From Leucoraja erinacea (Eukaryota): DNA of 64,000 nt. The stretch is taken from positions 16,988,001-17,052,000 of the forward strand of contig NC_073379.1 in assembly GCF_028641065.1 (NCBI RefSeq), written 5' to 3'. Below are positions 1 to 44,248 of the stretch, one piece after another; the first letter of the stretch is position 1; each line of letters starts with the position of its first letter. The translations under genes were made by a program, and so were the position numbers. The notes under the pieces are model-generated. The model was given only the letters and a program-made list of their open reading frames with translations, made no database searches and was not told the origin of the DNA.

Positions 1-14
1 GGGGGTGAGGGGGC

Positions 15-684
15 ACCGCAGGAACACCCAGTCGTACATGAAGGAGTAGAGCACATTCTGAGACCTCTCGACGAAGGACATCTTGTCGGACAACTCTGAC
101 AGAATGACTGGGACATAGGAGGGCGGGGTTGGCATCTGTCCACAGTGTCTCTCCAACGTAAAGCCCGGGGAGAACCGCAGGGTGAAGACGAGGGGAACCC
201 CAAGCTTCAAAGCCAGGAGATCCCCGCACACCTGCACTGGGTCAGAGAGCAGGACCTTGAACTTGGCCTCCCGTAGTCTCTGCACCAGCTCCTCGTTCTT
301 CAGTATCCCGTCGCACACCTGCATGCCCAGCTCCCTCCCCTTGGCCATCAGCGCCGAAAACACCCTGTACCTGCCCCAAAAGGACAAGTCCGGTGCCTGG
401 TAAAGGGAGACGTCCAGCCAGTTGTTCAAAAAGGCTTCCGTGGTCTCGTGTGTAAACGGCACTTGGAACACTTCCAACTTCATGGCCGAGGACTCGGAGT
501 TGTTTACAAACCACTGTGACATCGTGGCCACTGTGACATCGTGGCCCCTCGCCATCAAGCCGGCAATTATGTACTTCAAGTTAATCCAGTGGCTTCCTTC
601 TGTCAACGGCCAGATCAACACGTTCTCCCCAGCGACCCCGGGCAGGGTGAGATACATCACCAACAGCAGATGCCTGGCATGCAT
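15..684 (-). pseudogene. UGT2A-like exon 1, copy 1 (type B); 3' end of the exon disrupted or not visible
   Basis: Near-identical to copies 3 and 4 from the ATG at 684 (aacaccATG) down to position 15. Identity breaks 39 nt before the expected donor and bases 1-14 are unrelated G-rich sequence. Carries a 3-nt insertion near 604-607 (WPLTEGSHW vs WPTEGSHW). Confidence 0.7.
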
Positions 685-2010
685 GGTGTTCGCCAGCAAT
701 CCAACCTCAGTGCCCGATCAGCCGCCCTGCACTCTGATCAGAATAAAAACCTCCCCTTTGAAACTTCCTGGTGGACACAGTTTCCACTCCGGCATGAACA
801 GGAACAAGGAAATAGAAATCCTGGACTGGATTGAGAATGCTGATCTAACTTCAGTGCAGAGGAACAGCAGGGAAACTGGCCCCACTCACTGCCCACAAAG
901 TCTACGCCCGTCCGCACCAGTCACTTCAGTTGAGTTTATTGTCACATGTACCGAGGTACAGTGAAAAACTTTTGTTGAGCGTTAACCAGCCAGCAGAAAA
1001 ACAATGCACCAGCCGTAGTTCTATGCTTAAGAAGGAACTGCAAATGCTGAAGAAGGGTCACGACCCGAAACGCCACCCATTCTTTCTCTCCAGAAATGCT
1101 GCCTGTCCCGCTGAGTTACTCCAGCTTCTAAAACAAATCTATTTTCGGTTTGAACCAGCATCTGCAATTCCTTTCCCACACATTATTCCAGCTTGAGTTC
1201 TAATTGAGTGCCTTACCAATGTTCAGATTCGTGCCAGAGAAGCAGAGAAGTGGTGGCGCAGTGGCGCAACAGTAGAGCACCAAAGACCTTGGTTCCATCC
1301 TGGCTATGGGTGTTTGTGGAGTTTGTACGTTCTCCCCGTGACAGTCTGAGTAATAGAGTGAAAGAGTGTGGAAACAGGCCCATAGGCACAACTTGCCCAC
1401 ACCGCCCAACATGTCCAAGCTACACTAGTCCCACCTGTCTGCATTTGGTCCATATCCCTCCAAACCAACCACGCATTCCTATTAAATCTTTTCCCCTTCA
1501 CCTTAAACCAATGTCCTCTGGTCCTTGATTCACCTAGGCTGGGCAAGAGATTCTGATAGGATACAGCGTTAGTCTTCTTAGATGGCACCTTCCAAAGTCA
1601 TGACTTCCACCTGCTGCAAGGACAATGACAGCAAGAACATGGGAACACCACCAACCAAGCCTCACAACATCCCGACTTGGAAATACATCACAGTTCTTTC
1701 ATTGTTGCTGGGTCAAAAACCTACAACTCTCTTTCTGAAACAATCATGAGTGTGCCCGCAGTAGCAGTTCAAGAAGGCAGCTCACCACCACCCTCTCAAT
1801 GGCAATTATGGATGGACCATTAAATGCTGGCTCAGTTTACGAACCGTACGTACCTTCAATTAATACATTGACAAAATGGTGAAGAGTATACTTTAAAATA
1901 ACATAGCTGACATTGTTACATCAGTAGGTATAACGCTTAATTTCTACATGTTAATTGGTAATTTTGTAATCGATTCACTTAACAAAAGGAAAAGAGACAG
2001 ACAACCTCAC

Positions 2011-2716
2011 CTAAAGCTTCACTATAATAGGAGTTCCATTCATCCCACATCTGTTTGCACATCCAGTCGTACATGAAGGTGTAAAGAACGTTCTGAACTC
2101 TCGCAATGAAAGACATCTCATTAGAAAACTCGGAGAGGGTCGCCGGTACATAGGAGGGAGGGGCTGGGATCTGTCCGCAGAGTCTCTCTATTGCAAATGC
2201 TGGGGAGAATCTCAGAGAGAAGATGAAGGGAATTCCCAGCTTCAGAGCCAGGAGATCCCCACAGTTATGCACGGGGTCAGAGAGCAGAACTTTAAACTTC
2301 GAATCTCATAGTTTTTGCACAAGCCTTTCATTCTTTATCACCCCGTCACAGATGCCTTTAGTAAGTTTGATTCCAGGTTCCATGGCCGCTGAGAATCTTC
2401 TGTATGCTTGCCAGTGGGTTAATTGTGATTTCTCGTAGATAAAGAATTCCATGACTGTATTCATGTAAGCCTGAAATTTGTCACTTGTAAACGGCACTTG
2501 AAACACTTCAAATTTCACTGGTGAGGGTTCAGAATAGTTGATGTAAACTGCAGCGGAATTCACAGCCACAGTAACACTGTGACCTCTTGCGATCAGCTCA
2601 TTGATGATGGGTTTCAAGTTAATCCAGTGACTTCCTTCTGCAGGCCAGATCAATATGTTCTCACTAGTTGCCCACTGGAGAAGCAGAAATCCCAGAAACA
2701 GAAGCCTGATCTTCAT
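2011..2716 (-). pseudogene. UGT2A-like exon 1, copy 2 (type A) with premature stop
   Basis: MKIRLLF signal peptide, WPAEGSHW, DPVHNCG and PPSYVP motifs; 706 nt ending TTA G|gtgagg. In-frame TGA at 2306-2308 where paralogues have CGA (Arg). Confidence 0.85.
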
Positions 2717-3646
2717 GATGTCCGTCAGGAACAGTTCTGAGCCCAGGATTCACTAACCTATTAACTAGCTGACAGGACATTGAGCCTTTTGAGGCACAAG
2801 GTGAACTTCCACAAGCAAATAAAGCGTCAGCAAATTCAAAATACCACACTGCACTCAAATGTCCAAGAATGTATCCAGTGATTTTCGATTCAGTTGTTTG
2901 AGCTGATCCCATCTGCATGCGTTTAACCCATATTCCTTTGAAAAGTTAGATTAGTCCAAAAACATTTCCTAAGGTAGAAATGTCAAAGACTAGAGGGCAT
3001 AGCTTTAAGGTGGAAGGGTGAGAGTTAAAAGGACACGTGCGGGGCAAGTTTTGTTTCCACAGAGTGGTGGGTGAGTGGAACATGCTGCCAGGGGTGATGC
3101 TGGAGGCAGATATGATAGTGGTATTGAAGGGGCTTTTCAATAGCCACATGGAAATGCAATGAATGGAGGGGAATAGATCAATAGGTTTTTTTTTGTCTAT
3201 TTCCCTGTGACCTGCGTGGGTTTTCTTTGAGTGCTCCGGTTTCCTCCCACATTGCAAAGACGTGTAGGTTTGTCGGCTGTAGAACTGCAGGAGTAGCCCA
3301 GCAGATCAGGTCTCTGGAAGACATGGATAGGTGACGCTTCGGATCGAGACCCTTCTTCGGACCTACCCATGTTCTCCTGAGATGCTGCCTGACCTGCTGA
3401 GTTTCTCCAGCACTTTACGTCCTTCAGGCTTGAAGATTAATTGGCGTCTACAAGTTGCCTCGAACGTGCAAGGGGTGGAGTGGGTGAGAAAGTGCGGGGA
3501 CGGAGAACTAGTGCGAACTGTTGATCGCTGGACGGCGTAGACTCGGTGGGGCGAAGGGCCTGTTTCCACGCTGTATCTCTAAACTAAATTAAAAATGAAA
3601 ACCAAACGTGTGCTGCCCGCACAGCGGAATGAGCCAAACCACCTAC

Positions 3647-4352
3647 CTGAAGCCTCGCTGTAATAAGCATCCCAATCTCCCCAGGACCGCAGGAACACCC
3701 AGTCGTACATGAAGGAGTAGAGCACATTCTGAGACCTCTCGACGAAGGACATCTTGTCGGACAACTCTGACAGAATGACTGGGACATAGGAGGGCGGGGT
3801 TGGCATCTGTCCACAGTGTCTCTCCAACGTAAAGCCCGGGGAGAACCGCAGGGTGAAGACGAGGGGAACCCCAAGCTTCAAAGCCAGGAGATCCCCGCAC
3901 ACCTGCACTGGGTCAGAGAGCAGGACCTTGAACTTGGCCTCCCGTAGTCTCTGCACCAGCTCCTCGTTCTTCAGTATCCCGTCGCACACCTGCATGCCCA
4001 GCTCCCTCCCCTTGGCCATCAGCGCCGAAAACACCCTGTACCTGCCCCAAAAGGACAAGTCCGGTGCCTGGTAAAGGGAGACGTCCAGCCAGTTGTTCAA
4101 AAAGGCTTCCGTGGTCTCGTGTGTAAACGGCACTTGGAACACTTCCAACTTCATGGCCGAGGACTCGGAGTTGTTTACAAACCACTGTGACATCGTGGCC
4201 ACTGTGACATCGTGGCCCCTCGCCATCAACCCGGCAATTATGTACTTCAAGTTAATCCAGTGGCTTCCTTCTGTCGGCCAGATCAACACGTTCTCCCCAG
4301 CGACCCCGGGCAGGGTGAGATACATCACCAACAGCAGATGCCTGGCATGCAT
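3647..4352 (-). CDS. UGT2A-like UDP-glucuronosyltransferase exon 1, copy 3 (type B), intact
   Basis: Open 706-nt exon MHARHLLL...NVLIWPTEGSHW...SDPVQVCGDLLALKLG...PPSYVP...WDAYYSEAS, ending TCA G|gtaggt. Closely resembles vertebrate UGT2A exon 1 in motifs, length and phase-1 donor. Confidence 0.9.
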
Positions 4353-6429
4353 GGTGTTCGCCAGCAATCCAACCTCAGTGCCCGATCAGCCGCCCTGCAC
4401 TCTGATCAGAATAAAAACCTCCCCTTTGAAACTTCCTGGTGGACACAGTTTCCACTCCGGCATGAACAGGAACAAGGAAATAGAAATCCTGGACTGGATT
4501 GAGAATGCTGATCTAACTTCAGTGCAGAGGAACAGCAGGGAAACTGGCCCCACTCACTGCCCACAAAGTCTACGCCCGTCCGCACCAGTCACTTCAGTTG
4601 AGTTTATTGTCACATGTACCGAGGTACAGTGAAAAACTTTTGTTGAGCGTTAACCAGCCAGCGGAAACACAATGCACCAGCCATAGTTCTATGTTTAAGA
4701 AGGAACTGCAAATGCTGAAGAAGGGTCTCGACCCGAAACGCCACCCATTCTTTCTCTCCAGAAATGCTGCCTGTCCCGCTGAGTTACTCCAGCTTCTAAA
4801 ACAAATCTATTTTCGGTTTGAACCAGCATCTGCAATTCCTTTCCCACACATTATTCCAGCTTGAGTTCTAATTGAGTGCCTTACCAATGTTCAGATTCGT
4901 GCCAGAGAAGCAGAGAAGTGGTGGCGCAGTGGCGCAACAGTAGAGCACCAAAGACCTTGGTTCCATCCTGGCTATGGGTGTTTGTGGAGTTTGTACGTTC
5001 TCCCCGTGACAGTCTGAGTAATAGAGTGAAAGAGTGTGGAAACAGGCCCATAGGCACAACTTGCCCACACCGCCCAACATGTCCAAGCTACACTAGTCCC
5101 ACCTGTCTGCATTTGGTCCATATCCCTCCAAACCAACCACGCATTCCTATTAAATCTTTTCCCCTTCACCTTAAACCAATGTCCTCTGGTCCTTGATTCA
5201 CCTAGGCTGGGCAAGAGATTCTGTGCATCTGTGGATGCTCCCATTTCCTCCACATTCCAAAGATGTGCGGGTTTACAGGTTAATTAGTCTTTACTAAATT
5301 GCCCCCAATGGGTAAGATGCGAAACTGGAATAAAATAGAACTAGTGTATGGGTGATCGCTGGTCGGCGGGGACTCAGTGGGCCGAAGGGCCTGATTCCAC
5401 ACTGTATCTCTAAATTAAACTACAGAATGGCCTCAAGCCACAATGATTCTTTTCTCTTTATGGCCTTAGATGAATTAGTTAATAATAATGGTTCAAATTT
5501 GCGTGTGCCAACACCAACAACGGAGAGGTCATCACAGCCCCACAATGAAACCACCGGGTTTTGACCTCCATCGCAAGCAATGGCTAACCCTGAACAGAAT
5601 CCACACCCTCCATGCAAGAACAGCCATCGCCTGCCTGAGTGGGGGATGACAGACAGCCCCGCTTGCGACTGGGGACATCCAAACATCATCCCACACATCG
5701 TGAATGACTGCCCACTGATGCTTTTCCCTGGTGGCATCAAACCATCCACCCAGTAACTGATGGTGTCCTGGCCTGGAAGTCTACCCTTGACCTACAACTT
5801 TGGGCTGTGCACGCCGTACATAAGAATATGCAAGAAAATGCTTCTAATATTACTCTTCTGAATATGTATCAACCCAGATAGCACTCATGACTCCTGAAGT
5901 TTCTTTTGCCTAATAATGTATTAGAAGTGAAGTCGGAGTTTCATGAAGCAGGTTGCGCCATTCTGTATGTGAGATGCAACATGGGCGAGAGAGTTGATTT
6001 CACCAAGAGGATACAAACTTTAGGCTCATCCACGCATGAGACCAGCATACCATCACCCTTTGCAAGAGGTTCTAACTCGGTCTGTCCAGAAACACAGGAC
6101 CCAAACCCGGTTGGGTAAGTAGATAGCTTTTGTCAGTCAGTTCAAGTGAGGTAAAGAACTGTCAGAAATGTCAGAGTCAAGGAATCAGCTGAAGCCATTT
6201 GGGCAGTTGAGGTAAACTGTGCAACTGACCAAACAAGACTGTCAACATGTAGAAACAAAGAACTGTAGACACTGGTTCACACAAATGGATGACACTTGCA
6301 ATGTTCAGAGTCTGATCCAACTCCAGCATTACTTTGTTGACTGGAGCGTACAAATTTGTTGCAGGACTAAGGTCCTGTAGCTAACTATCCATGCGTAGCA
6401 CCTCTCCTAGACAATCAAAACCAATGGTG

Positions 6430-6715
6430 AGGCACTGGATCATTTCCCATTCCTCGGAAGACCCCCCCCTCCAGTTAGAAGAGATGTCAGTGAAGAAATT
6501 CATCAACACTTTCGATGCACCATTGCTACTTCCAACCAGATGTGAAAAATGCTTTTCCTTGGCCAAGAACTCATTCCTGCACCGTGCCATGGACTGATGT
6601 GTCTGCGGTGTTCCCTGTCTGCATACTCCAGACTGAAAGACAGCTTGCAGCAGGCACCTCACAACACTGGAGACATGCAACCAGCAATTTCCCTGCAAAA
6701 CCTGCCAAGCCCCTA
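6430..6715 (+). mobile_element. Highly degenerate RTE-clade LINE fragment
   Basis: Broken-frame motifs LDHFPFLG, DVSEEIHQHFRC and SRHLTTLETCNQ resemble the post-RT region of RTE LINEs. Confidence 0.5.
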
Positions 6716-7348
6716 TCAGTATATCGTAAGGTCATAAGTGATAGGAGCAGAATTAGGCCATTTGGCCCATCGTCTACTCCGCCATTCAATCATGGCGGGT
6801 CGATCTCTCCCTCCTAACCCCATTCTCCTGCCAAGGTAGGAAAAGGGCAAGTACCATGAGATCTGGGGGTCCTTGTTCATCAGTCACTGAAAGTAAGCAT
6901 GTGGGGTACAGCAAGCAGTGAAGAAAGCGAATGGCATGTTGGCCTTTATAACAAGAGGATTTGAGAATGGGAGCAAAGAGGTCCTTCTTCATTGTACAGG
7001 TCCCTAGTGAGACCACAACTGGAATATTGTGTGCAGTTTTGGTATCCAAATTTGAGGAAGGACATTCTTGCTATTGAGGGAGTGCAGCGTGGGTTCACAA
7101 GGTTTCTCCAGCACTTTACGTCCTTCAGGCTTGAAGATTAATTGGCGTCTACAAGTTGCCTCGAACGTGCAAGGGGTGGAGTGGGTGAGAAAGTGCGGGG
7201 ACGGAGAACTAGTGCGAACTGTTGATCGCTGGACGGCGTAGACTCGGTGGGGCGAAGGGCCTGTTTCCACGCTGTATCTCTAAACTAAATTAAAAATGAA
7301 AACCAAAACGTGTGCTGCCCGCACAGCGGAATGAGCCAAACCACCTAC

Positions 7349-8054
7349 CTGAAGCCTCGCTGTAATAAGCATCCCAATCTCCCCAGGACCGCAGGAACAC
7401 CCAGTCGTACATGAAGGAGTAGAGCACATTCTGAGACCTCTCGACGAAGGACATCTTGTCGGACAACTCTGACAGAATGACTGGGACATAGGAGGGCGGG
7501 GTTGGCATCTGTCCACAGTGTCTCTCCAACGTAAAGCCCGGGGAGAACCGCAGGGTGAAGACGAGGGGAACCCCAAGCTTCAAAGCCAGGAGATCCCCGC
7601 ACACCTGCACTGGGTCAGAGAGCAGGACCTTGAACTTGGCCTCCCGTAGTCTCTGCACCAGCTCCTCGTTCTTCAGTATCCCGTCGCACACCTGCATGCC
7701 CAGCTCCCTCCCCTTGGCCATCAGCGCCGAAAACACCCTGTACCTGCCCCAAAAGGACAAGTCCGGTGCCTGGTAAAGGGAGACGTCCAGCCAGTTGTTC
7801 AAAAAGGCTTCCGTGGTCTCGTGTGTAAACGGCACTTGGAACACTTCCAACTTCATGGCCGAGGACTCGGAGTTGTTTACAAACCACTGTGACATCGTGG
7901 CCACTGTGACATCGTGGCCCCTCGCCATCAACCCGGCAATTATGTACTTCAAGTTAATCCAGTGGCTTCCTTCTGTCGGCCAGATCAACACGTTCTCCCC
8001 AGCGACCCCGGGCAGGGTGAGATACATCACCAACAGCAGATGCCTGGCATGCAT
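7349..8054 (-). CDS. UGT2A-like exon 1, copy 4 (type B), intact, same protein as copy 3
   Basis: 706 nt, ATG at 8054, donor G|gtaggt at 7348; translation matches copy 3. Confidence 0.88.
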
Positions 8055-9242
8055 GGTGTTCGCCAGCAATCCAACCTCAGTGCCCGATCAGCCGCCCTGC
8101 ACTCTGATCAGAATAAAAACCTCCCCTTTGAAACTTCCTGGTGGACACAGTTTCCACTCCGGCATGAACAGGAACAAGGAAATAGAAATCCTGGACTGGA
8201 TTGAGAATGCTGATCTAACTTCAGTGCAGAGGAACAGCAGGGAAAACTGGCCCCACTCACTGCCCACAAAGTCTACGCCCGTCCGCACCAGTCACTTCAG
8301 TTGAGTTTATTGTCACATGTACCGAGGTACAGTGAAAAACTTATGTTGAGCGTTAACCAGCCAGCGGAAACACAATGCACCAGCCATAGTTCTATGTTTA
8401 AGAAGGAACTGCAAATGCTGAAGAAGGGTCTCGACCCGAAACATCACCCATTCCTTCTAACCAGAGATGCTGCCTGTCCCGCTGAGTTACTCCAGCTTCT
8501 AAAACAAATCTATTTTCGGTTTGAACCAGCATCTGCAATTCCTTTCCCACACATTATTCCAGCTTGAGTTCTAATTGAGTGCCTTACCAATGTTCAGATT
8601 CGTGCCAGAGAAGCAGAGAAGTGGTGGCGCAGTGGCGCAACAGTAGAGCACCAAAGACCTTGGTTCCATCCTGGCTATGGGTGTTTTGTGGAGTTTGTAC
8701 GTTCTCCCCGTGACAGTCTGAGTAATAGAGTGAAAGAGTGTGGAAACAGGCCCATAGGCACAACTTGCCCACACCGCCCAACATGTCCAAGCTACACTAG
8801 TCCCACCTGTCTGCATTTGGTCCATATCCCTCCAAACCAACCACGCATTCCTATTAAATCTTTTCCCCTTCACCTTAAACCAATGTCCTCTGGTCCTTGA
8901 TTCACGATAGTGGTATTGAAGGGGCTTTTCAATAGCCACATGGAAATGCAATGAATGGAGGGGAATAGATCATTGAAGCAGATTACACATGTTTTGTAAT
9001 CCGCACTTTGAAATTCGGTGAAAAAAAATCAATTAAAACATCTGCTTTATGCGAGATAGTGGGGGTGTCATTATTAAGCGCATTTTAAATGTCACTATTA
9101 ACATCATATTAACACTATGTGTCACCAATTGTGTTTGAGCTTCAAGTATTACTGAAGGTATTCACGGAGAATTTCTTAAAGCTGTCTGATGTGGGTTCAA
9201 TTACCATTTGAACTAATTGTATGTATTGGTGGATGGGAAAGA

Positions 9243-11070
9243 TTTTTTATTTATTTAAAAAATTTATTAGAAGCAGTGTACAAAAATATAACCAGTGGCA
9301 TATGACATAATACAGTTATTGTACAGCTTCAATTTTTATTTTTAGCTATAGTTAAGAGAATAGAAAAAGCAAGAGAGAGAAGAAGTGGATGTGCAAGGAT
9401 AGAACCCCTGGACTACCAAATTGGTGAAGCCAAAGAGTGAGTAAGTAAAATAAATAAGGAAGACATAGAGAAATAAAAAGACAAAAACAGCAAGAAAAAC
9501 AAAAGGTGATGATATACCTGCCTCGCATCACTCCCCACCCATCACCCAACCTGTAATTAGATTTAACTCCAAAATTGTGTTGCACCATACTATCCTTGCA
9601 ATAAATCAATGAATGGTGTCCATGTCTTCGAAAAATGCTCTGGTTTTACTGCTAAGACAAGTCTAATATTTTCAATTTTCTATAATAGATGGCTTGAACA
9701 AAGGGTTATTGGCTATTGGTGAAAGAAGAAATACATTTCTTAGTTTTAAAGTTGATTTGACTTGTCTCCAGGTTTGTAGAGTGCTGTGATAATCAGATTT
9801 TTATCATATAGTGTGTTCTTCAAATTTGTTGGAGAGAGAAGAATCGTACCTATATTAAAAGGCGAGCAATCCTCTCTCTCCATTATTAACCAGTCTACCT
9901 GTTGGCATAAATTGTCCAGCCAGTAAATTACATTTTTAATATTTGTTGCCCAGTAATAGTATAAGAAGTTGGGGAGAGCCAATCCACCCGTTTCTTTGGG
10001 TTTACATAGATGCCGTTTATGGATTCTATGTGTTTTATAATCCCAAATAAAGTTTGCAATCAGAGAATTAAGATTTTGGAGAAAAAATGTTAGGAAGATA
10101 TATCGGTATTGATGGATATTGATATTTACAACAATCCGGTTTATTTAGTATTTGAGGGTTAAATCTCCAGAATGATTTTTTATTAAACATTCCTTCTAGT
10201 TTTAAGGAGAAGGTTAGCGGGGAATGATCGGATATAGTACTATTATGGTATTTGGGATTAATTGTGAAAGGTATTAATTTAGTGTCCACTAGAAAATAGT
10301 CAATACGTGTATAGGTTTTATGTACTGATGAGTAAAAGGAATATTCTCTTTCGGATGGGTTTACAATCCTCAATACGTCTGTTATATTTGTATTTCTTAT
10401 ATACATATTTAAGAGTTCACTGGATTTTGATTTTGTATTATATCTCTTTTGTTGAGCGGATTTATCCAGGTATTGATCCAGAACGCAATTGAAATCTCCC
10501 CCAATTATCACGTTTTGCTGGGTGGAGTCGGAAATTATATTCAAGATTTTATTAAAAAATTGTGGGCTGTCAAAGTTAGGAGCATAAATATTTACAATAG
10601 TAAGTGGGGTAGAGTATATCTCCCCAGAAACTATGACATACCTCTCATCTTTGTCTGCAATGGTGTTTTTATGTTTAAATGGTATGCCCTTATGGATTAT
10701 AATTGCAGTGCCTATGGATTTGGAGAGATAGGAGGAGTGATATATTTGACCAATCCAATGAGCCTTCAGCCTGGTCTGAGCTTGATCTTTAAGATGCATT
10801 TCCTGTAAAAATATGATGTCAGCATTAATTGATTTTAATTGGGCATGAACCTTACACCTTTTAAGTGGCTCATTAGCGCCCCTAATATTCCAGCTACAAA
10901 AAGTAATTCCTCCAGTTTTCTTCAGAGGGTCGTCTTGCATTATAGCCTAGATAGGTTCCCTTGTTTCAGGTGGTGCAACACAATAACTCAACTTTCTGGG
11001 TGTTGGGTGGGTGATCCCAATTTCAGAATTCTGATGGTATATCCCAAAGAAAGGTGCAAAATAACATAAA
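9243..11070 (-). mobile_element. L1-clade LINE derivative: endonuclease intact, RT and much of the C-terminus deleted
   Basis: ORF 10068-10940 has APE motifs (SWNIRG, FLQE, NIYAPN, GGDFN, RIDY, SDH). It joins directly to post-RT motifs (SIPIYLP, FIW, GGLALPNFLYYYWA), then PIANNPLFKPS, then the terminal KIENIR...KTWTPF, a 3' UTR and an A-rich tail near 9243-9265. Confidence 0.85.
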
Positions 11071-11809
11071 TGATACAAAAAAGCAGTATTTAAGTATACT
11101 GTGTACAACCACCCACTGGTGGGAACATTTGTGTGATCTTCCTTAGGTGTAAATCTCATTCAGTTCCGCCCCTTACACACTAATATTATAGAAAAGAAAA
11201 AACAGGCCAGAACCAGATATTATATGCACAGGAAAAAAAAAACGGAACCTGTACTGTAAGTAGTTCATCTAATAGGTTGGACTAAGAAGGTATTTAAATG
11301 CTGTATTTAAATTAAAAGAAAAGTTTTTTTGCTTATTAATAATCCTGTATTAAACAGTGTCAAAGACTGTGAGATTGTGTGTAATTATCTCTAATAGGAT
11401 AACATTTCTTAACTAGGTCTAAGTGGGTATTTACTATTTAAATACCCAATTTTAATTAACAAAATATCATACTTATTGGTATTCGTATCTTAAACTCATA
11501 CTCGAATGAAAACTGTCTGGCTTGAAGTGGTTAATCTAAAATGATCGCGAATGTGCTCGCACCTCAAGGGCAGCAGAAGTTGAAGAAGGAATCTCGCCGC
11601 CACCTTCTCAAGGGCAATGAAGGATGGGCCATTAAATGCTAGCTCAGTTTACGAACCGTATGTACCAATAATAAATACGTTGTCAAAATGGTGAAGGGTC
11701 TACCTTAAAATAACGTAGGTGGCACTTTGAATAAAATGCTTAATTTCTAATTTAATTGGCAATTTTGTTCGAGTCACTTAACACAAGGAAAAGACACATT
11801 CAACCTCAC

Positions 11810-11834
11810 CTAGAGCTTCACTGTAAAAGGAGTT
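11810..11834 (-). pseudogene. Remnant 3' tip of a type A UGT exon 1 with retained donor
   Basis: Minus strand AACTCCTTTTACAGTGAAGCTCTAG|gtgagg (NSFYSEAL), followed by the intron flank shared with copies 2 and 7. Confidence 0.7.
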
Positions 11835-11982
11835 TGGAACAATAGCTTGGAAAGAATTGGATTTTGAAAGTGTCAGACGAGTACACCTTCAAATAACGTA
11901 GCTGCCACTTACTTCAGTGGTTAAAAGGCTTTAAATTCTAGGTTTTCATTAACAATTTTGCGTTAAAGTCATTCAACTTCAC

Positions 11983-12687
11983 CTAGAGCTTCAGTGTAAT
12001 AGGAGTCCAAATCATGCCACATCCGTTTGCACATCCAGTCGTACATGAATGTGTAAAGAACGTTTTGAACTCTCTCAGTAAAAGACATCTTATCGGTAAA
12101 CTCTGAGAGGATCGCCGGTACATAGGAGGGAGGGGCAGGGATCTGTCCGCAGAGTCTCTCCACTGTAAATCCCGGGGAGAATCTCAGAGAGAAGATGAAG
12201 GGAATTCCCAGCTTCAGAGCCAGGAGCTCCCCACAGCGATGCACGGGGTCAGAGAGCACGACTTTAAACTTTGAATCTCGCAGTTTTTGCACAAGTTTTT
12301 CATTCTTTATCATCCCGTCACAGACCATTTTGGTAAATTTGATTCCACGTTCCATGATTGCTGAGAATTTTCTGTACGCTTCCCAGTGGGATATTTGTGT
12401 TTATCATAGAGCCAGAATTGCCCAATTGCATTCATTAAATCTTGAATTTTGTCATTGGTAAACGGCACTTGAAATACTTCATATTTCACTGGTGAGGGTT
12501 CAGAATAGTCGATGTCAAGTACAGTAGAATTCACAGCCACAGTAACACTGTGACCTCTTGCGATCAGCTCATTGATGATGGGTTTCAAGTTAATCCAGTG
12601 GCTTCCTTCTGCAGGCCAGATCAATATGTTCTCACTAGTTGCCCTCTGGAGAAGGAGCAATTCCAGAAACAGAAGCCTGATCTTCAT
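11983..12687 (-). pseudogene. UGT2A-like exon 1, copy 5 (type A), 1-nt deletion frameshift
   Basis: 705 nt rather than 706; frame shifts near 12399 (TAT GAT AAA CA- CAA vs TAT GAA AAA CCA CAA). Donor CTA G|gtgaag. Could be a sequencing error. Confidence 0.75.
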
Positions 12688-13907
12688 GATGTCCGTCGGG
12701 AACAGCTCTGAGCCCAGGATTCACTAACCTATTAACTAGCCGGCAGGACATTGAGCCTTTTGAGGCACAAAGTTCACTTCCACAAACAATAAAAGTGTCA
12801 GCAAATTCAAAATCCCGCACTGCACTTAGATTACCAAGAATGGATCCAGGGTTTTTCTATTGAGCTCTTTGACCTACTTCCATCTGCCTGCGTTTGTCCC
12901 TTATCCCTTTGAAGAGGTAAACTTGTCAGAACCTTTATCCTAAGGTGAAAATGTCAAAAACTAGAGGGCATAACTTTAAGGCAGAAGGGTGAAAGTTTAA
13001 AGGACACGTGCGAGGCAAGTTTGTTTTCCACAGATAGTGGTGGGTGCGTGGAACATGCTGCCAGGGGTGATGGTGGAGGCAGATATGATAGTGGCATTTA
13101 AGGGGCTTTTAGATAGGCACGTGGATATGCAGGGAATGGAGGTGATGGATCATACGAAGCAGATTAGTTTAACTCGACTTCATGTTCAGCACAGATATTG
13201 TGGGCCAAAGGGCTGTACTGTTCTATGATCTATCCCGATGCAAACGCTCAGATTTACAGATACATGTTTACCTGACGCAGGTCTCATAATCAAGGGGACA
13301 GAGAGAGAAAATGTGTGATATAACTCATGTGGTCACATTTAAAAAGGTGGATGGTCATTCTTTCTCCAAAGGAAGTCTAAAACTAGAGGGACACATGTTG
13401 TGTTGTGAACCGCGGGATGGAATCACACAGAGCATGTCGGAAGATGCTTGTGGTGGTTGGAGGACAATCATCTCAGACACAGGACATCTCTGCAGGAGAT
13501 CCTCAGGGTAGTGTCCGAGGCCCAACCACCTTCAGCTGCTTTATCAATGGTCTTCACATCAGTACGCAAACAAAAACAGCAACCATGGGCAATAACCAGC
13601 TCAGGGTTGATAGGTGGCAAGTAACATTCACTCCATAGAAGTGCCAAGCAATGACAACACCCAACAAGAGAAAATCCAGCTATCACCCCCTGACATACAA
13701 AGGCATTACCGGCACTAAATCCACCACCATTAATACTCTAGGGGGTTACCATTGATCAAACCTGAACTGGAATAGTCATATGCAAAATGTGACCACAAGA
13801 CCATGTTAGATAAAAGTCAGTGGATAAAAGGTGTTAATTTCTACATGTTAATTGGCAATTTTGCATTCAAGTCATTTAACAAAAGGAAAATAAATTGTCA
13901 ACCTCAC

Positions 13908-14613
13908 CTAAAGCTTCACTGTAATAGGAGTCCCAATCACGCCACATCCGTTTGCACATCCAGTCGTACATGAATGTGTAAAGAACGTTCTGAACTCTCT
14001 CAGTAAAAGACATCTTATCGGTAAACTCTGAGAGGATCGCCGGTACATAGGAGGGAGGGGCTGGGATCTGTCCGCAGAGTCTCTCCACTGTAAATCCCGG
14101 GGAGAATCTCAGAGAGAAGATGAAGGGAATTCCCAGCTTCAGAGCCAGGAGATCCCCACAGTAATGCACGGGGTCAGAGAGCACGACTTTAAACTTCGAA
14201 TCTCGCAGTTTTTGCAAAAGTCTTTCATTCTTTATCATCCCGTCGCAAACGCCTTTGGTAAATTTGATTCCACGTTCCATGATTGCTGAGAATCTTCTGT
14301 ACGCTTCCCAGTGGGATATTTGTGGTTTTTCATAGATCCAGAATTCCCACATTGCATTCATTAAATCTTGAATTTTATCACTGGTAAACGGCACTTGAAT
14401 TACTTCAAATTTCACTGGTGAGGGTTCAGTATAGTTGATGTGAACTGCAGCTGAACTCACAGCCACAGTAACACTGTGACCTCTTGCGATCAGCTCATTG
14501 ATGATGGATTTCAAGTTAATCCAGTGACTTCCTTCTGCAGGCCAGATCAATATGTTCTCACTAGTTGCCCTCTGGAGAAGGAGAAATTCCAGAAACAGAA
14601 GCCTGATCTTCAT
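13908..14613 (-). CDS. UGT2A-like exon 1, copy 6 (type A), intact
   Basis: Open 706-nt exon MKIRLLF...WPAEGSHW...DPVHYCG...WDSYYSEAL, donor TTA G|gtgagg. Confidence 0.92.
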
Positions 14614-14689
14614 GATGTCCGTCAGGAACAGCTCTGAGCCCTGGATTCACTAACCTATTAACTAGCCGACAGGGCATTGAGCCTTTTGA

Positions 14690-14702
14690 GGCACAAAGTT
14701 CA
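14690..14702. promoter_or_regulatory. Candidate HNF4/DR1-type nuclear receptor site upstream of type A UGT exons (also 12764-12776 and 17310-17322)
   Basis: GGCACA-A-AGTTCA about 77-90 nt upstream of the ATG in copies 5, 6 and 7, within a conserved flank that also has a GTTAAT HNF1 half-site. Motif match only. Confidence 0.35.
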
Positions 14703-15759
14703 CTTCCACAAACAATAAAAGTGTCAGCAAATTCAAAATCCCGCACGGCACTTAGATTACCAAGAATGGATCCAGGGATTGCTATTGAGCTCTTTGACCT
14801 ATTTCCATCTGCTTGTGTTTGTCCCCTATCCCTTTGAAGAGGTAGACTTGTCAGAACCTTTATCCTAAGGTGGAAATGTCAAAAACTAGAGGGCATAAAT
14901 TTAAAGGCAGAAGGGTGAAGTTTAAAGGACACGTGCGAGGCAAGTTTGTTTTCCACAGTTAGTGGTGGGTGCGTGGAACATGTTGCCAGGGGTGATGGTG
15001 GAGGCAGATACGTTAGTGGCATTTAAGGGGCTTTTAGATAGGTACGTGGATATGCAGGGAATGGAGGGGATGGATCATGCGAAGCAGATTAGTTTAACTC
15101 GAATTCATGTTCAGCACAGATATTGTGGGCCAAAGGGCTAGACTGTTCTATGATCCAACATGATGCAAATGCTGATTTACAGATACATGTTTACCTGATA
15201 CAAGTCGCAAAATCAAGGGGACAGGGAAAGAAAAAGAGTTATATAAATCACGTGGACACATTTAAAAGGTGGATGTTCAGTCTTTCTCCTGGGGAAGTCT
15301 AAAACTAGAGGGCATATATTTTTTAAAGGTGGGAAAAGAAAGATTTAAGAGAAAATTGAGAGGCATTGGTATTCTTATGAAAATAGTTATCTTGAATATA
15401 TTTTACTTTGTAAATTAAACCTCGTCAAAAGTAGCAACTTAGATTTCTCAATGAATGGGTGAAATTACCTCTGAACTCCATTGTGACCTGAACCCCACGA
15501 CAGCCATGACAAGTTTATAGTAACGCCCAGAACCCACAACTAAAACTGAACCCCACAGTAATCCTGAATGAACAATGAACTCCACAGTAACCCCTCACAT
15601 CCCCACAATAACATCTGGCCCCCACAATAACATCTGGCCTGAACAACGCTATAGATACTAAAAAGGAAGGGCAGTAGAGAATCTTGTTTGCAAGGATAGA
15701 TGGTTTGCCAGATGAGATTATATTGGGAAGGCCTGACCTATATGCTCATGAATGTAGAC

Positions 15760-16335
15760 TAACAGCCCCACACACAATGTGGCCACAAGACCATGTTAGA
15801 TGTTTTCAACCCTGGGGCGAGTAACTCACCTCCTGACTCCTCAAAGCCTGTCCACCATCCACAAGGCTCAGCTCAGGAGGGTGATGGAATACTCTCCACT
15901 TGCCTGGATGAGGGCAGCCTCAACAATGCTCAAGAAGCTCGACACCATCCAGGACATGGCCACCCACTTGACAGGTATCCCATCCTCAACCATCCACTCA
16001 CTCCATTACCGACGCACGCTATCAGCAGTTAGTACCACCAGTAGGATGCAATGCAGCAAATCACCAAAGATGGCACCTTCCAAAGCCATGTCCTCTACCA
16101 GCTAGAAGGACAAAGACAGCAAGAACATGGGAACACCACCAACCTGAGAGCTGCCCTCCCATCCTCACAACATCCCAACTTGGAAATATATCACCGTTCT
16201 CTCATTGTAGCTGGGACAAAATCCTTGAACTATCTCTCTAAAACCATCATGAGTGTGCCCGCACCTCAAGGGCTGCAGCAGTTCAAGAAGGCAGCTCACC
16301 ACCACCTTCTCAAGGGCAACTAAGGATGGGCCATT
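15760..16335 (+). mobile_element. CR1/L2-group LINE 3' fragment (related pieces near 1580-1830, 13430-13800, 17760-18010)
   Basis: Translation HLLTPQSLSTIHKAQLRRVMEYSPLAW...LDTIQ is typical of the post-RT region of this group. Confidence 0.65.
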
Positions 16336-16526
16336 AAATACTGGCTCAGTTTACGAACTGTACGTACCTTCAATGAATACCTTGTCAAAATGGTGAAGAT
16401 TATACTTTAAAATAACATAGCTGGCTTTGTTACGTCAGTAGTTACAAGTTGTTAATTTCTACATGACTAATTGGCAATTTTGCATTCAAGTCAAATGACA
16501 AAAAGAAAGGAAAATGTCAACCTCAC

Positions 16527-17233
16527 CTAAAGCTTCACTGTAATAGGAGTCCCAATCACGCCACATCCGTTTGCACATCCAGTCGTACATGAATGTGTAA
16601 AGAACGTTCTGAACTCTCTCAGTAAACGACATCTTATCGGTAAACTCTGAGAGGATCGCCGGTACATAGGAGGGAGGGGCTGGGATCTGTCCGCAGAGTC
16701 TCTCCACTGTAAATCCCGGGGAGAATCTCAGCGAGAAGATGAAGGGAATTCCCAGCTTCAGAGCCAGGAGATCCCCACAGAAATGCACGGGGGTCGGAGA
16801 GCACGACATCAAACTTCGAATCTCGCAGTTTTTGCAAATGTTTTTCATTCTTTATCACCCCGTCACAGATGTCTTTGGCAAGTTTGATTCCACGTTCCAT
16901 GATTGCTGAGAATCTTCTGTACGCTTCCCAGTGGGATATTTGGGGTTTTTCATAGATCCAGAATTCCAAAATCGCATGCATGAAATCTCTGTACTTGTCA
17001 CTGGTAAACGGCACTTGAAATACTTCAAATTTCACTGGTGAGGGTTCAGAATAGTCGATGTAAAGTGCAGCTGAACTCACAGCTACAGTAACACTGTGAC
17101 CTCTTACGATCAGCTCGTTGATGATGGATTTCAAGTTAATCCAGTGACTTCCGTCTGCAGGCCAGATCAATACGTTCTCACTAGTTGCCCTCTGGAGAAG
17201 GAGAAATTCCAGAAACAGAAGCCTGATCTTCAT
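16527..17233 (-). CDS. UGT2A-like exon 1, copy 7 (type A); +1 frameshift in a homopolymer, possibly a sequencing error
   Basis: 707 nt; G5 at 16789-16793 where paralogues have G4; otherwise open. Donor G|gtgagg. In-frame upstream ATG at 17242. Confidence 0.75.
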
Positions 17234-18498
17234 GATGTCCATCAGGAACAGTTCTGAGCCCTGGATTCACTAACCTATTAACTAGCCGACAGGACATTGA
17301 GCCTTTTGTGGCACAAAGTTCACTTCCACAAACAATAAAAGTGTCAGCAAATTCAAAATCCCGCTCTGCACTTAGATTACCAAGAATGGATCCAGGAATT
17401 TTCTATTGAGCTCTTTGCCCTACTTCCATCTGCCCGTGTTCTGTCCCTTATCCCTTTGAAGAGGTAGACTTGTCAGAACCTTTATCCTGGTGGAAATGTC
17501 AAAAACAAGAGGGCATATCTTTCAGGCGGAAGGGTGAAAGTTTAAAGGACACGTGCGAGGCAAGTTTGTTTTCCACAATACGTCACATATTCCTTCACTC
17601 CATAGATGCTGCCTCACCCGCTGAGTTTTTCCAGCATTTTCATTTACCTTATATAAATCATGTGGTCACATTTAAAAAGGGGGATGGTCAGTCTTTCTCC
17701 TAAGGAAGTCTAAAACTAGAGGGACACATGTCATGTTGTGAACCGCGGGATGGAATCACACAGAGCATGTCGGAAGATGCTTGTGAAGGTTGGAGGACAA
17801 TCACCTCAGCCACAGGACATCTCTGCAGGAGATCGTCAGGGTAGTGTCCAAGCCCCAACCACCTTCAGCTGCTTTATCAATGGTCTTCACATCAGTACGC
17901 AAATAAAGCAGCAACCATGGGCAATAACCAGCTCAGGGCTGATAGGTGACAAGTAACATTCACTCCATACAAGTGGCAGGCAATGACAACAACAAACAAG
18001 AGAAAATCTATCTACATAAAGTATGCAAAGAGTTACCATGTATAGGGATGCGGGAAAGTTGCAAAGTGTTCAATATAGTCCCGACGGCCCCTCTTCGTTC
18101 TTGGTCACGGGGAGAGCGTACAAACTCCGTACAGACAGCACACGCAGTCAGGATCAAACCCGGGTCTCTGGCGCTGTAAGGCAGCAACTCTACCGCTGTC
18201 CTGCTCTAAAGCTCTGGCTTGTCATTTTGGTACTGAACTTGTGTGATGTTAAACCTTCAATGAATGAAACAATCTTTCACTCTATCTGAAGATAGACACA
18301 AAATGCTGGAGTAACTCAGCGGGGCAGGCAGCGTCACTGGAGAGAAACCGAAACGTCACTCATTCCTTCTGCTGCCCTGAGTTAATCCAGCATTTTGTGG
18401 TGTCTATCTTCGATGTAAACCAGCATCTCCAGTTCTTTCCTAAACTAATCAAGAATTGTTGCCCAAAGTTGTGTCGTCTGCTCACTATCTCCACTTAC

Positions 18499-18683
18499 CG
18501 CTGGCACGAGGGGAGGGGTTGGAACAGGGGCCGCTGCAAGAACTTGAGTCTTTGAGCTCCTCAGGTGACGTTGAAGACGTTGAATCTCCATGTCCTGCTT
18601 CAAAAGGTCAATTTCAGTCTTCAGGGCCCTCATCTTCTGGTTGTCATCTTTCCATGAGATCAGTGCCTGATCCTTTCCACCTC
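18499..18683 (-). CDS. CCDC17-like exon 8 (last visible)
   Basis: GGKDQALISWKDDNQKMRALKTEIDLLKQDMEIQRLQRHL...PVPTPPLVPA (coiled coil then Pro-rich). Strong donor GCG|gtaagt. Acceptor tcttttctggtggaag| chosen for phase-1 compatibility and is uncertain. Confidence 0.65.
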
Positions 18684-19935
18684 CTTCCACCAGAAAAGAC
18701 ATTTCAACACTCAAGTTATTATTTTTCTTGCAAGTAATATTAAGGCTGGAGAAAAAAATTGATTGTAATCTTATTATAAATTAAAAATTACGTTAAATAG
18801 GTTTACTTTAATATTAATAAAAAATAAATCATTTAGGGTAATAAAAGATAAAATCCTCCTTTCTTTATACTTTGGAGATACAGCGTGGAAACAGGCCCTT
18901 TGCCGCATCGAGTCCGCGCCGACCAGCGATTACTTCATACACGAGCACTATCATACACACTAGGGGGGAAATTTACTACAGTATTTTTAAAAAAGAACCT
19001 CCAAACCTGTACTGTACGTCCCTGGAGTGTGCGAGGAAACCAGAGCACCCGGTGAAAACCCAGGGGGTCACAGGGAGAACGTACAAACTCCGTACAGATA
19101 GCACCCATAGTTGGGTTCAAATCCGTGTCTCTGGCACCGTAAGGCACAGCTTCACCACTGCACCACTGTGCCATGAACAAAGAGGGACCACAGAGACAAT
19201 ACATTCAGTCAGATGGTAATTCGTATCTGAATTCGAATGAGTTGCCATAATAGGCTACAAAAACCGATACAATTATGAATTTTCAAAGATATGTGAACAG
19301 ATATAGACAGGAAGGGTTTACTGGGCTCTGGGCCAAATGCAGGCAAATGGAACTAGCACAATATGCCAACTTAGTCAGCATGGACAAGGTGGGCTTAAGG
19401 ACTTTTTGTTTAAGAAAGAATCGAAGGTAGACAAGAAATGCAGGAGAAACTCAGTGGGTAAGGCAGCATCTATAGGTGACGTTTCGGCTCGAGACCCTTC
19501 TTCAGACTTCAGGCTTAAGGACTTGTTTCCTTGCTGTATGAGGAAACTTAAACCCCCGTCCCATGGTACGAGTTCATTCCAAGAGTTTTCCTGAGTTTGC
19601 CCTGATTCGAACTTGGAGATTTACGGTAATGGCCACTCGTCGGTACTCGGGGCTCTCGTGGACAGACTGGGACTGACCCCTCCACCCCCCCCCCCACCCG
19701 GGGCCCCCTCCCCCCCACCCCCCCCACTCCCAATCTTTGGACATCCCCAATCATGGACGTTGCATTCGTCACTTTCATTTCATGTTTCATGAATCTTGTT
19801 GTGTTTCTTGACTGTTGGCAGACCAGTATCCCTCCTGAGATCAACAAAGTGTGATCGTGATCGTGATCGTATACGATCCGACTTCGGGTCTGCCCAGCTT
19901 CTGTAGCCCAGCTTGATGACAAAGGTGATAATTAC

Positions 19936-20103
19936 CTGTTAGTATCAGTCTATGTCCAGTGGACGTCTTCAGGGCTTTTTGTGGCCTGTGGTTTCTTTGT
20001 CGTTTCACCCTCAGCTTCAGAATTTCTTCCTCCAGACGTTGATTTTCTATCTCCGCAGTGATCAGCTCGGAGTCCAAATTGCGTCTCAGCGTATCGTGCC
20101 CTC
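19936..20103 (-). CDS. CCDC17-like exon 7
   Basis: LDSELITAEIENQRLEEEILKLR resembles CCDC17 ELPVVEAENRRLEAEILAL. Acceptor cggtag|, donor CAG|gtaatt; phase 1-1. Confidence 0.8.
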
Positions 20104-20163: not shown

Positions 20164-21166
20164 TAGGGTTGCCAAGTGTCCCGTATTAGCTGGGATATCC
20201 CGTATATAGGGTGATTTCACTAAAGGTCACTGGAGCGTAGATCTGCACCCACGTGACCAAAATTCTCAAGTGGAGGACACTCGGGGGTTCCGGTACATGT
20301 TAGTGGATGGGAAAAATATTAACTTATTAACTTACTTTTGATAAATTCAGCGAGCAAACGCGATAATTCCCGATATTTTGGACCTTTAAATATCCACGGC
20401 AAATGTCGGCTGTTCATTTCCGCCGGATTGGCACCTTCAGTTCCCTTTTGAATTTACCTTACTTGCTATCTTTTTTTTTCCCTGTAAATCTAGGTAGCTG
20501 TGCCTCACGGTCACCCCGACTGGCACAGTAAATTGCAGCTCACAACCTCGCCGTTTTCTATGTTTTTAACGGGTGGGAAAATGCGTTTTTTCCCATCCAC
20601 TAACATGTACCGAACCCTCGAGTGTCCTCCACTTGAGAATTTTGGTCACGTGGGTGCGGATCTACGCTCCAGTGACCTTTAGTGAAATCACCCTATTGGT
20701 TTGACCCATGCGGGACCGCCCTTGTCCCGTATTTGACTGCTGCTACTCGGGTCGAGGGGACTGTCGGGTCGGAGAGGCACATCCAATCCTGCCTCACCCA
20801 TCCCGATGTAGTGCAGCCCATGGAGTGCAGCAGCAGCAGCGTCTCGCCCATGGCCCCGTCGGTCGGCAGCCCGGCCAGCTGTCCGACCTTCGGACCTTCG
20901 CTTACCGCCAACACCACCACCCCTCCTTCTCATGGCCGATCATCGGTTCACGAGTTGGATGGGGTGCCAGACTTTGCGCGTAATGTCGCGCGGCCCGGTC
21001 CAAAACTCCTCAGCTGGCCCGCCGGCTGGGCTTTGTATGCAGTCCAGCACCCGGGCCAACTCATCATTCACCCAGCCACGGCCGAGTCAACCAATAGCCG
21101 TTGGGAATTTGTCCCTTATTTTGACCTTTTGGCCCTTATTTGGGAGTGAGAAAGTTGGCAACCCTA
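20164..21166. mobile_element. Non-autonomous hAT (Blackjack-like) DNA transposon
   Basis: TIRs TAGGGTTGCCAA / TTGGCAACCCTA; perfect 8-bp TSD GTGGGAAG at 20156-20163 and 21167-21174. Confidence 0.88.
20209..20693. mobile_element. MITE with ~105-bp TIRs nested in the hAT element
   Basis: GGGTGATTTCACTAAAGGTCACTGGAGCGTAGATC... and its reverse complement ending at 20693; TA on both flanks. Confidence 0.85.
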
Positions 21167-22339: not shown

Positions 22340-22479
22340 TGTGGGCTCGCTCCTTGCGATGAGTCCTCGGGAGCTTCTCTCTCCGCTCCACTTGTAGAGC
22401 TTCCGCCAAGAGATCATGCAACTGCACCAGGATCAGCTGGTCATTGCCTCCATTCTGCAGGTAGGAAAGCCGCAAGGCA
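22340..22479 (-). CDS. CCDC17-like exon 6
   Basis: ALRLSYLQNGGNDQLILVQLHDLLAEA resembles CCDC17 [27 protein letters not shown]. Acceptor ccccag|, donor |gtaaga; phase 2-1. Confidence 0.82.
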
Positions 22480-27324: not shown

Positions 27325-27450
27325 CTGATTTCAGATGGGAGACTTCCTCCACCATAGAAAGGCACAAAGGTCTGCGGCTGATGAAGTGTCTCCTTTTTCT
27401 TTGAGTTGCGTGAGGGCAAACTGCTCTGCCTGCTTCGGGCTTTATTTTGT
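27325..27450 (-). CDS. CCDC17-like exon 5
   Basis: QNKARSRQSS...FVPFYGGGSLPSEI. Acceptor ttgcag|, donor CAG|gtagac; phase 2-2 fits both neighbours. Confidence 0.75.
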
Positions 27451-29167: not shown

Positions 29168-29321
29168 ATCGTATCCAGCTGCAGCATCTCCAGCTGTTGC
29201 CTCATCGTCTCCAGGAGCAACTCGTTCTTGTATTCTTGTGCCTTCAGCTCCGCCAACATTTTCTCCACCTGAGAAAAGTTCTTGCTTTTTTCCGACAATT
29301 CATTTAGCCTTCTCACAATCT
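29168..29321 (-). CDS. CCDC17-like exon 4
   Basis: EIVRRLNELSEKSKNFSQVEKMLAELKAQEYKNELLLETMRQQLEMLQ (coiled coil). Acceptor ttttaatttcaccgcag|, donor |gtaagc; phase 1-2. Confidence 0.8.
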
Positions 29322-32488: not shown

Positions 32489-32618
32489 CTGCTCTCTGCT
32501 CCTCCAGTTGCAGGTTGTGCTGCAGTATACCTTTAACATGCTCTCCATGGTTCTGTGCGAGGTTCAGCAACTGAGTCTTGTGCTCCTGCATCCACTGCTC
32601 TCTGGGGGTACAGTCATC
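32489..32618 (-). CDS. CCDC17-like exon 3
   Basis: DDCTPREQWMQEHKTQLLNLAQNHGEHVKGILQHNLQLEEQRA. Acceptor cttccttctcag|, donor CAG|gtactt; phase 0-1. Confidence 0.75.
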
Positions 32619-40726: not shown

Positions 40727-40879
40727 CTGGTTAAGTGTGAGCTGAGTGTGAGACACCAGATTATCATTCAGTAACCTCTTCTCATTCTCATCCATTTCTG
40801 CCAGGATTTCTCGTTCCTCCATTTCACGCTGCTTCTGTTGTGCCTCGCGGCGCTGTCTGTAGTCCTTCAGCTGATCAAA
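40727..40879 (-). CDS. CCDC17-like exon 2
   Basis: FDQLKDYRQRREAQQKQREMEEREILAEMDENEKRLL...NQ. Perfect TACTAAC branch point, pyrimidine tract and cag|; donor CAG|gtaact; phase 0-0. Confidence 0.78.
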
Positions 40880-41307: not shown

Positions 41308-41473
41308 NNNNNNNNNNNNNNNNNNNNNNNNNNNNNNNNNNNNNNNNNNNNNNNNNNNNNNNNNNNNNNNNNNNNNNNNNNNNNNNNNNNNNNNNNNNNN
41401 NNNNNNNNNNNNNNNNNNNNNNNNNNNNNNNNNNNNNNNNNNNNNNNNNNNNNNNNNNNNNNNNNNNNNNNNN
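41308..41473. other. Assembly gap (166 N)
   Basis: Run of N. Confidence 0.99.
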
Positions 41474-44110: not shown

Positions 44111-44248
44111 CACGTTTTCTGTGGTTTTAGTCATCAGTCCTCTTCCGATCTCGGTTCCAATGCAAAACTTCTCCTGGTGTTTCTGCAACAGGTTAGGGGA
44201 TTTAAAGGTCATATTGCAGCTCGAACACCTCAGGTACCTCGGCGTCAT
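44111..44248 (-). CDS. CCDC17-like first coding exon (C2H2/C2HC-like N-terminal motif)
   Basis: MTPRYLRCSSCNMTFKSPNLLQKHQEKFCIG resembles the CCDC17 N-terminus [24 protein letters not shown]. Donor uncertain (GTG|gcaagt or AAC|gtggca). Confidence 0.75.

Follow-up and report, generated by a model that had tools for sequence, protein, structure and literature searches.

A CCDC17-like gene of the little skate stops before a UGT2A variable-exon array: a possible nested locus or a possible loss of its second half

Does a gene that breaks off in front of an array of exons belonging to another gene continue behind it? The stretch of DNA analysed here (the window) comprises 64,000 nucleotides of the little skate Leucoraja erinacea (NC_073379.1, positions 16,988,001 to 17,052,000; coordinates below count from its first letter), in which a CCDC17-like gene stops mid-protein shortly before a UGT2A variable-exon array on the same strand. 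A first-pass annotation had read the locus either as a nested array or as a truncated gene. Our analysis indicates a real break between two old neighbours, in which an array lying within an intron and a loss of the second half of the gene, whether real or made by the assembly, are about equally likely.

The CCDC17-like gene lies on the minus strand at 44248-18499 and has eight coding exons (Table 1) which join into 398 codons with 0 stops, encoding in frame the Cys/His motif and the coiled-coil half of the protein. Introns 1-7 measure 1.3-8.1 kb, every acceptor is AG and all donors are GT save that of exon 1, a GC donor (GCAAGT, 44110-44105, minus). Residues 66-398 are identical to residues 1-333 of the NCBI Leucoraja erinacea model XP_055486522.1 (P0010), and the window exons share 327 of 333 residues with the Amblyraja CCDC17-like protein P0011. 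The six differences comprise three derived on each side and therefore, in a comparison of low power, the window gene is not changing faster. The NCBI models of all three skates begin at Met66, without the intact exon 1 and its Cys/His motif, an omission that is likely an annotation miss. Intron 6 contains an inverted repeat of 111 nt with 97% identity (20206-20316 and 20587-20696), and a frame at 51933-52574 (minus), upstream of the gene, resembles what we take to be a retrotransposon gag remnant.

The first-pass annotation was right in recognising a CCDC17-type gene, but the gene is a paralog, CCDC17-like, and not CCDC17 itself. In a midpoint-rooted tree built on the C-terminal halves of 23 proteins (one of 24 rows was omitted as too short), a 100/100 split separates lungfish and frog CCDC17 from a 'CCDC17-like' clade to which every shark and ray sequence belongs. 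Because Amblyraja P0011 falls in this clade and the window exons are near-identical to P0011, the window gene is assigned to the CCDC17-like paralog. Mouse Ccdc17 is co-regulated with Foxj1, according to the available part of PMC12832812; as the mouse gene is the other paralog, a cilia link of the CCDC17-like gene is only suggestive.

Exon 8 ends, as had been reported, in a consensus phase-0 donor (GCG/GTAAGT, donor G at 18498), and the distance to the same-strand array, given earlier as 1.3 kb, is 1,256 nt when measured to the first UGT ATG at 17242. The read-through stop assigned to 18445 is likewise present (18447-18445). The minus strand has neither AATAAA nor ATTAAA in 18445-17243, which argues against transcripts reading through to this stop and being polyadenylated there, an ending that the first-pass annotation had set against its own readings. 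The acceptor of exon 8 is a weak AAG before 18683, implied by three skate models (P0010, P0011, P0057); a decayed acceptor was ruled out, since the Amblyraja and Rhinoraja models imply the same one. The alternative acceptor that had been proposed at 18746 exists and would end the protein after ALILLARKIIT, but it is out of frame, and 18745 is not the normal exon start, since the skate models and the frame place exon 8 at 18683-18499.

It had also been noted that the phase-0 donor and UGT exon 2 do not share a frame. This holds, because intact cassettes end in phase 1, but it is incomplete, as cassette 1 contains an in-frame acceptor at 17191, which is used by NCBI: XP_055486522.1 is spliced in frame from exon 8 at 17191 into cassette 1 and then meets the cassette frameshift. 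With 13 of 17 pyrimidines this acceptor is joint best among the 59 YAG sites in 18480-16500, and its score is reached by 87 of 1,892 window sites. Real acceptors of the CCDC17-like gene have 10-14 of 17 pyrimidines, so that 17191 is equally good. Acceptors of the 17191 type are present in three further cassettes, as a by-product of signal-peptide codons.

Table 1 Features of the CCDC17-like gene, the UGT2A array and the junction between them (positions in the window).
Feature	Position	Strand	Basis
CCDC17-like exon 1 (ATG; Cys/His motif)	44111..44248	-	87% identity to Mobula P0002 residues 1-46
CCDC17-like exon 2	40727..40879	-	tBLASTn, N-terminal profile
CCDC17-like exon 3	32489..32618	-	tBLASTn, N-terminal profile
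CCDC17-like exon 4	29168..29321	-	tBLASTn, N-terminal profile
CCDC17-like exon 5	27325..27450	-	tBLASTn, N-terminal profile
CCDC17-like exon 6	22340..22479	-	tBLASTn, N-terminal profile
CCDC17-like exon 7	19936..20103	-	tBLASTn, N-terminal profile
Alternative acceptor CAG, upstream of exon 8, out of frame	18746..18748	-	Splice-site inspection
CCDC17-like exon 8, last within the window; phase-0 GT donor at 18498	18499..18683	-	N-terminal profile
Short dispersed repeats just past the donor (about 18103-18200 and 18283-18442)	18076..18445	.	Self-comparison; very high contig depth
Short unique stretch, repeats to UGT upstream unit	18015..18100	.	No second window match at 18036-18075; X2 single-copy contig
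Upstream region of first UGT cassette, common to other cassettes	17243..18014 (sharing from 17236)	-	83-94% identity
Phase-0 in-frame acceptor inside UGT cassette 1, used by NCBI model P0010	17191..17193	-	Acceptor scan
UGT2A variable exon, cassette 1; frameshift near 16790; nearest Amblyraja isoform X7	16527..17242	-	92% over 147 columns
UGT2A variable exon 2, intact, 706 nt, phase-1 donor	13908..14613	-	Matches P0191
UGT2A variable exon 3, frameshifted	11983..12687	-	Sequence comparison
UGT2A variable exon 4, intact	7349..8054	-	Sequence comparison
UGT2A variable exon 5, intact; near-identical to exon 4	3647..4352	-	Sequence comparison
UGT2A variable exon 6, one in-frame stop	2011..2716	-	Sequence comparison
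UGT2A variable exon 7, cut by window edge	1..684	-	Sequence comparison

The part of the gene that is missing corresponds to Amblyraja residues 334-601, the last 268 residues, a predicted C2 domain. A profile of 15 elasmobranch proteins, run against 3,138 six-frame segments of the whole window, found no significant match to the C-terminal-half exons (best E 1.4), and tBLASTn within the window likewise found no C-terminal CCDC17-like exon; a control N-terminal profile recovered 8 of 8 exons from the same segments at E < 1e-16. The earlier statement that 1-18498 holds no further CCDC17-type exon is thus borne out, and the profile search found none of the missed exons before 17242 that had been raised as an objection to it. 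The predicted fold of the missing half is a beta sandwich, with pLDDT of about 90 over most of residues 30-190. Its best structure match is the C2 domain of AIDA (Z 13.0, rmsd 2.5, 135 aligned), C2 domains fill all of the top rows, and the sole lead of an atlas search was the C2 domain of nephrocystin-4, so that a truncated product would, by this prediction, lack a domain that likely binds membranes. Scanning metagenomes with the C-terminal half returned 16 loci of 30-58% identity, none informative. The 2-member Amblyraja protein cluster contains no little-skate C-terminal-half protein, though the sawfish fragment did cluster with a full-length relative; such look-ups can overlook fragments. 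Among 56 matches of 367-1169 aa there was no CCDC17-like protein of amniotes, nor of Narcine or Callorhinchus, possibly reflecting loss or split models.

The array comprises at least seven UGT2A variable exons in 17 kb of the minus strand, with starts from 17242 to 684 (upper coordinates in Table 1). Among the six complete cassettes, a frameshift disrupts two and a stop a third, leaving three intact; four of the six measure 706 nt with a phase-1 donor. Cassette 1 pairs with the intact Amblyraja isoform X7 and is therefore an inherited cassette. The constant exons lie outside the window, and a single C-terminal constant region is common to the NCBI little-skate models P0191, P0192 and P0200. 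The region upstream of cassette 1, 17243-18014, is 83-94% identical to 2719-3061, 12690-13032, 14616-14957 and 13318-13682, and judging from sequence it is likely a promoter. Three copies of a unit of some 3.7 kb, each with one UGT cassette, are 98.8-99.4% identical (15-1555, 3401-5223 and 7102-8905), as the result of either recent or false duplication, and a minus-strand endonuclease-like frame inside the array (9746-10946) presumably belongs to a LINE-type element fragment. UGT2A isoforms of 690-750 aa (P0190, P0075, P0078 and mammal and bird matches) have two first-exon domains, as seen in P0190, which indicates that upstream donors can splice to acceptors inside variable exons. Short UGT isoforms (281-325 aa) were ruled out as products of host-to-constant splicing, because they also occur in Mobula, where the host gene lies on a different chromosome.

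Single-copy contigs of runs X3 (18419-18898) and X7 (18406-18897), from two other organisms, contain exon 8 together with its donor and the first 80-93 nt of the intron. For run X2 the listed contig piece covers 18533-18899, and one single-copy contig (depth 22.6) lies at 18047-18052; none of the contigs listed for X2, X3 and X7 bridges the repeats at 18103-18442. The only N gap of the window is at 41308-41473, with none at the junction. In X2, exon 8 and its flank occur in two forms of roughly equal depth, which differ at 18474, 18507 and 18532, one of them changing Val396 to Met. Depth over the UGT first exon was about 500 versus 21 for single-copy sequence in X2, 312-456 versus 26-32 in X3 and 105-232 versus 29 in X7, giving ratios to single-copy depth of about 24, 12-15 and 4-8 over 16400-17450, where summed depth does not equal copy number. 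This suggests many near-identical cassettes, more than the window shows, and hints at large differences in cassette number between skates, summed depth being a poor measure of both. RNA run X22 (about 6/100 of reads sampled) gave no depth in any repeat-free bin of the UGT exon or of exons 7 and 8.

Among the 20 elasmobranch species with a CCDC17-like gene, models of 17 join exon 8 to exon 9, including the full-length models P0011 and P0057 of two other skates. The exceptions are the little skate (UGT fusion), the whale shark (P0028, exon 4 to exon 9) and the sawfish, whose P0063 starts at the third codon of exon 9 and lies on the same chromosome as sawfish UGT2A. A start exactly at exon 9 hints, as far as a gene model can, that intron 8 may be unusual. 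CCDC17-like and UGT2A-like genes lie on the same chromosome in 14 of the 17 elasmobranch species in which both were seen, and also in Pleurodeles and Spea; they are on different chromosomes in Hemitrygon and both Mobula species (the stingray group), for which the view of UGT2A copies is partial. Accession numbers are at most 15 apart in 6 of the 14 same-chromosome species (Amblyraja, Heptranchias, both Scyliorhinus, Cetorhinus and Chiloscyllium punctatum) and at most 56 apart in C. plagiosum, the UGT number being lower in four species and the CCDC17-like number in three. Large accession distances were rejected as evidence against adjacency, since the little-skate numbers differ by 1,654 though the genes adjoin. 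From the shared chromosomes and close accession numbers, the two genes are very likely old neighbours, which does not imply nesting. P0010 is the sole UGT fusion among 236 proteins checked, and none was found among 144 new relatives of the C-terminal half. In sturgeon, the unnamed 725-aa protein P0257 joins LDL-receptor-type repeats to the last 162 residues of CCDC17-like (100% identical to P0014), which suggests that there may be another same-strand neighbour or nested gene.

The reading that we place first, at close to but short of an even chance, is that the UGT2A array lies on the same strand in intron 8 of an intact CCDC17-like gene, nested or interleaved. The C2-domain exons would then lie left of the window, beyond the UGT constant exons or among the cassettes, and the host pre-mRNA would be spliced from 18499 over the cassettes to exon 9. 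Transcription of each cassette would start in the region upstream of it, and a phase-1 splice would join it to the shared constant exons, as in other UGT2A clusters. The host transcript would pass all cassettes and the UGT polyA site before exon 9; interference could most simply be limited by expression in different cell types, and leak into the in-frame acceptor at 17191 may occur. We consider it unlikely that all of the following hold together: that the array has lain sense-wise in intron 8 of a cilia-type coiled-coil/C2 gene since at least the skate-sawfish ancestor, that the host splices over tens of cassettes, many with an in-frame acceptor, and that leak into the first gives a coiled-coil-UGT fusion transcript.

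Nesting is consistent with a frame and splice sites that are intact over 398 codons and change no faster than in Amblyraja (at low power), with the joined exons 8 and 9 of the two other skates, with the sawfish, in which a second assembly is interrupted at precisely this intron out of some thirteen, with the single-copy contigs of X3 and X7 that carry exon 8, donor and intron start, and with the lack of a canonical polyA signal after the read-through stop. The shared chromosomes and near accession numbers agree with it too, but linkage alone fits simple adjacency equally, and the accession order flips, as for plain neighbours if numbers follow position. Moreover, the window holds no exon 9, the NCBI little-skate model stops short of it, the Amblyraja cluster lacks a little-skate C-terminal half though the sawfish fragment clustered, and the new relatives show no UGT fusion. 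Same-strand nesting is rare and poorly conserved, according to the available text of PMC2330155. The genes lie apart in Hemitrygon and both Mobula, for which a break between neighbours is simpler than un-nesting, and this fits a somewhat less probable alternative, a recent real deletion or rearrangement in this lineage. Exons 9 onward would be lost, the gene would elsewhere simply lie upstream of the array, and what remains would be a young truncated gene without C2 and with a free donor into the first cassette. A single event would be enough, the short repeats beside the donor could mark the breakpoint, the NCBI model ends within a UGT cassette, the cluster contains no little-skate C-terminal half, and the lack of amniote proteins among the 56 matches suggests that the paralog may be dispensable. 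However, eight exons show no stop, frameshift, lost splice site or excess of changes, the sawfish split at the same intron would be a coincidence, and the cluster result may have overlooked fragments.

We regard as quite unlikely an assembly error in which a misjoin at the repeats in 18103-18442 would have removed exons 9 onward from between exon 8 and the array. None of the listed contigs spans these repeats, the array looks error-prone, with three of six complete cassettes broken and the 3.7-kb unit repeated almost identically, and the depth of the contigs points to cassette copies beyond those in the window. Nevertheless, the repeats are only about 100-160 nt long with single-copy sequence on both sides, so that a misjoin is possible but not likely; the junction has no N gap, and collapse within the array would not create the adjacency of exon 8 and a cassette. 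Very improbable is a read-through fusion as the main product, in which exons 1-8 would be spliced at 17191 and on to the UGT constant exons, giving a coiled coil and a UGT without signal peptide. The in-frame acceptor ranks as joint best in its region and is the one that NCBI uses, but the frameshift in the assembled cassette 1 brings the frame to a stop after 185 codons, three other cassettes have this acceptor too, through their signal-peptide codons, and P0010 stands alone among the proteins checked. The weights given to these four explanations are judgements, not computed values. The first-pass annotation thus named the right two readings of a real break, of which nesting is marginally the more probable, given the split of the sawfish model at this intron and the absence of decay in the exons.

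If the array is nested, the locus is a natural experiment on how a long host transcript passes over numerous strong, in-frame splice sites that guest first exons use, and it would show LOC129693775, the NCBI little-skate model, to be chimeric, combining two genes. This is the problem of splice choice that variable-exon clusters pose, UGT1 and the protocadherins among them. If the gene is truncated, its C2 domain was recently lost beside an expanding detoxification array; an assembly error would mean a correction only.

The literature within our scope, which left subscription papers aside and took in some sources in part, yielded no publication on a CCDC17-UGT locus, shark UGT2 synteny or elasmobranch UGT2A organisation for this locus. 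CCDC17 as a whole word is absent from PMC11317154, and the supplements examined of PMC9605692, PMC10115646 and PMC13188829, available in part, give no coordinates for CCDC17-like or UGT2A. The window gene resembles CCDC17 and CCDC17-like proteins (PF28454, PF28455) in its N-terminal Cys/His motif and coiled coils, and differs from the full-length proteins in that the C2-fold half is absent from the window.

Variable/constant clusters are known from zebrafish Ugt2a1-a4 and mammalian UGT2A1/2A2, and splicing of zebrafish Ugt2a to shared constant exons has been confirmed by cloning (PMC2819257, available part). The skate array resembles them in having first exons in tandem, each about 706 nt long and ending in a phase-1 donor, and in the constant region shared by P0191, P0192 and P0200. 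In contrast to these clusters, it has at least seven cassettes in 17 kb, likely many more by depth, and starts 1.3 kb past the unsatisfied donor of another gene, a neighbour of a kind that the available part of PMC2819257 does not describe. Avian UGT2 is located between SULT1 and YTHDC1 (PMC6209164, in part). Among nested genes, 75 of 749 human overlapping pairs are same-strand nested, 22 of them conserved in mouse (PMC2330155), same and opposite orientation are broadly similar when all gene types are counted (PMC11694760), and the activity of a nested gene can shorten host transcripts (both sources, each available in part). Nesting, if true, would be a novel form of these known arrangements, the locus being ordinary otherwise: as in nested parallel pairs, host exons lie upstream of the guest on the same strand in the window, whereas the guest here would be an array of variable exons that has several promoters and offers many donors and in-frame acceptors, and the downstream exons of the host are putative.
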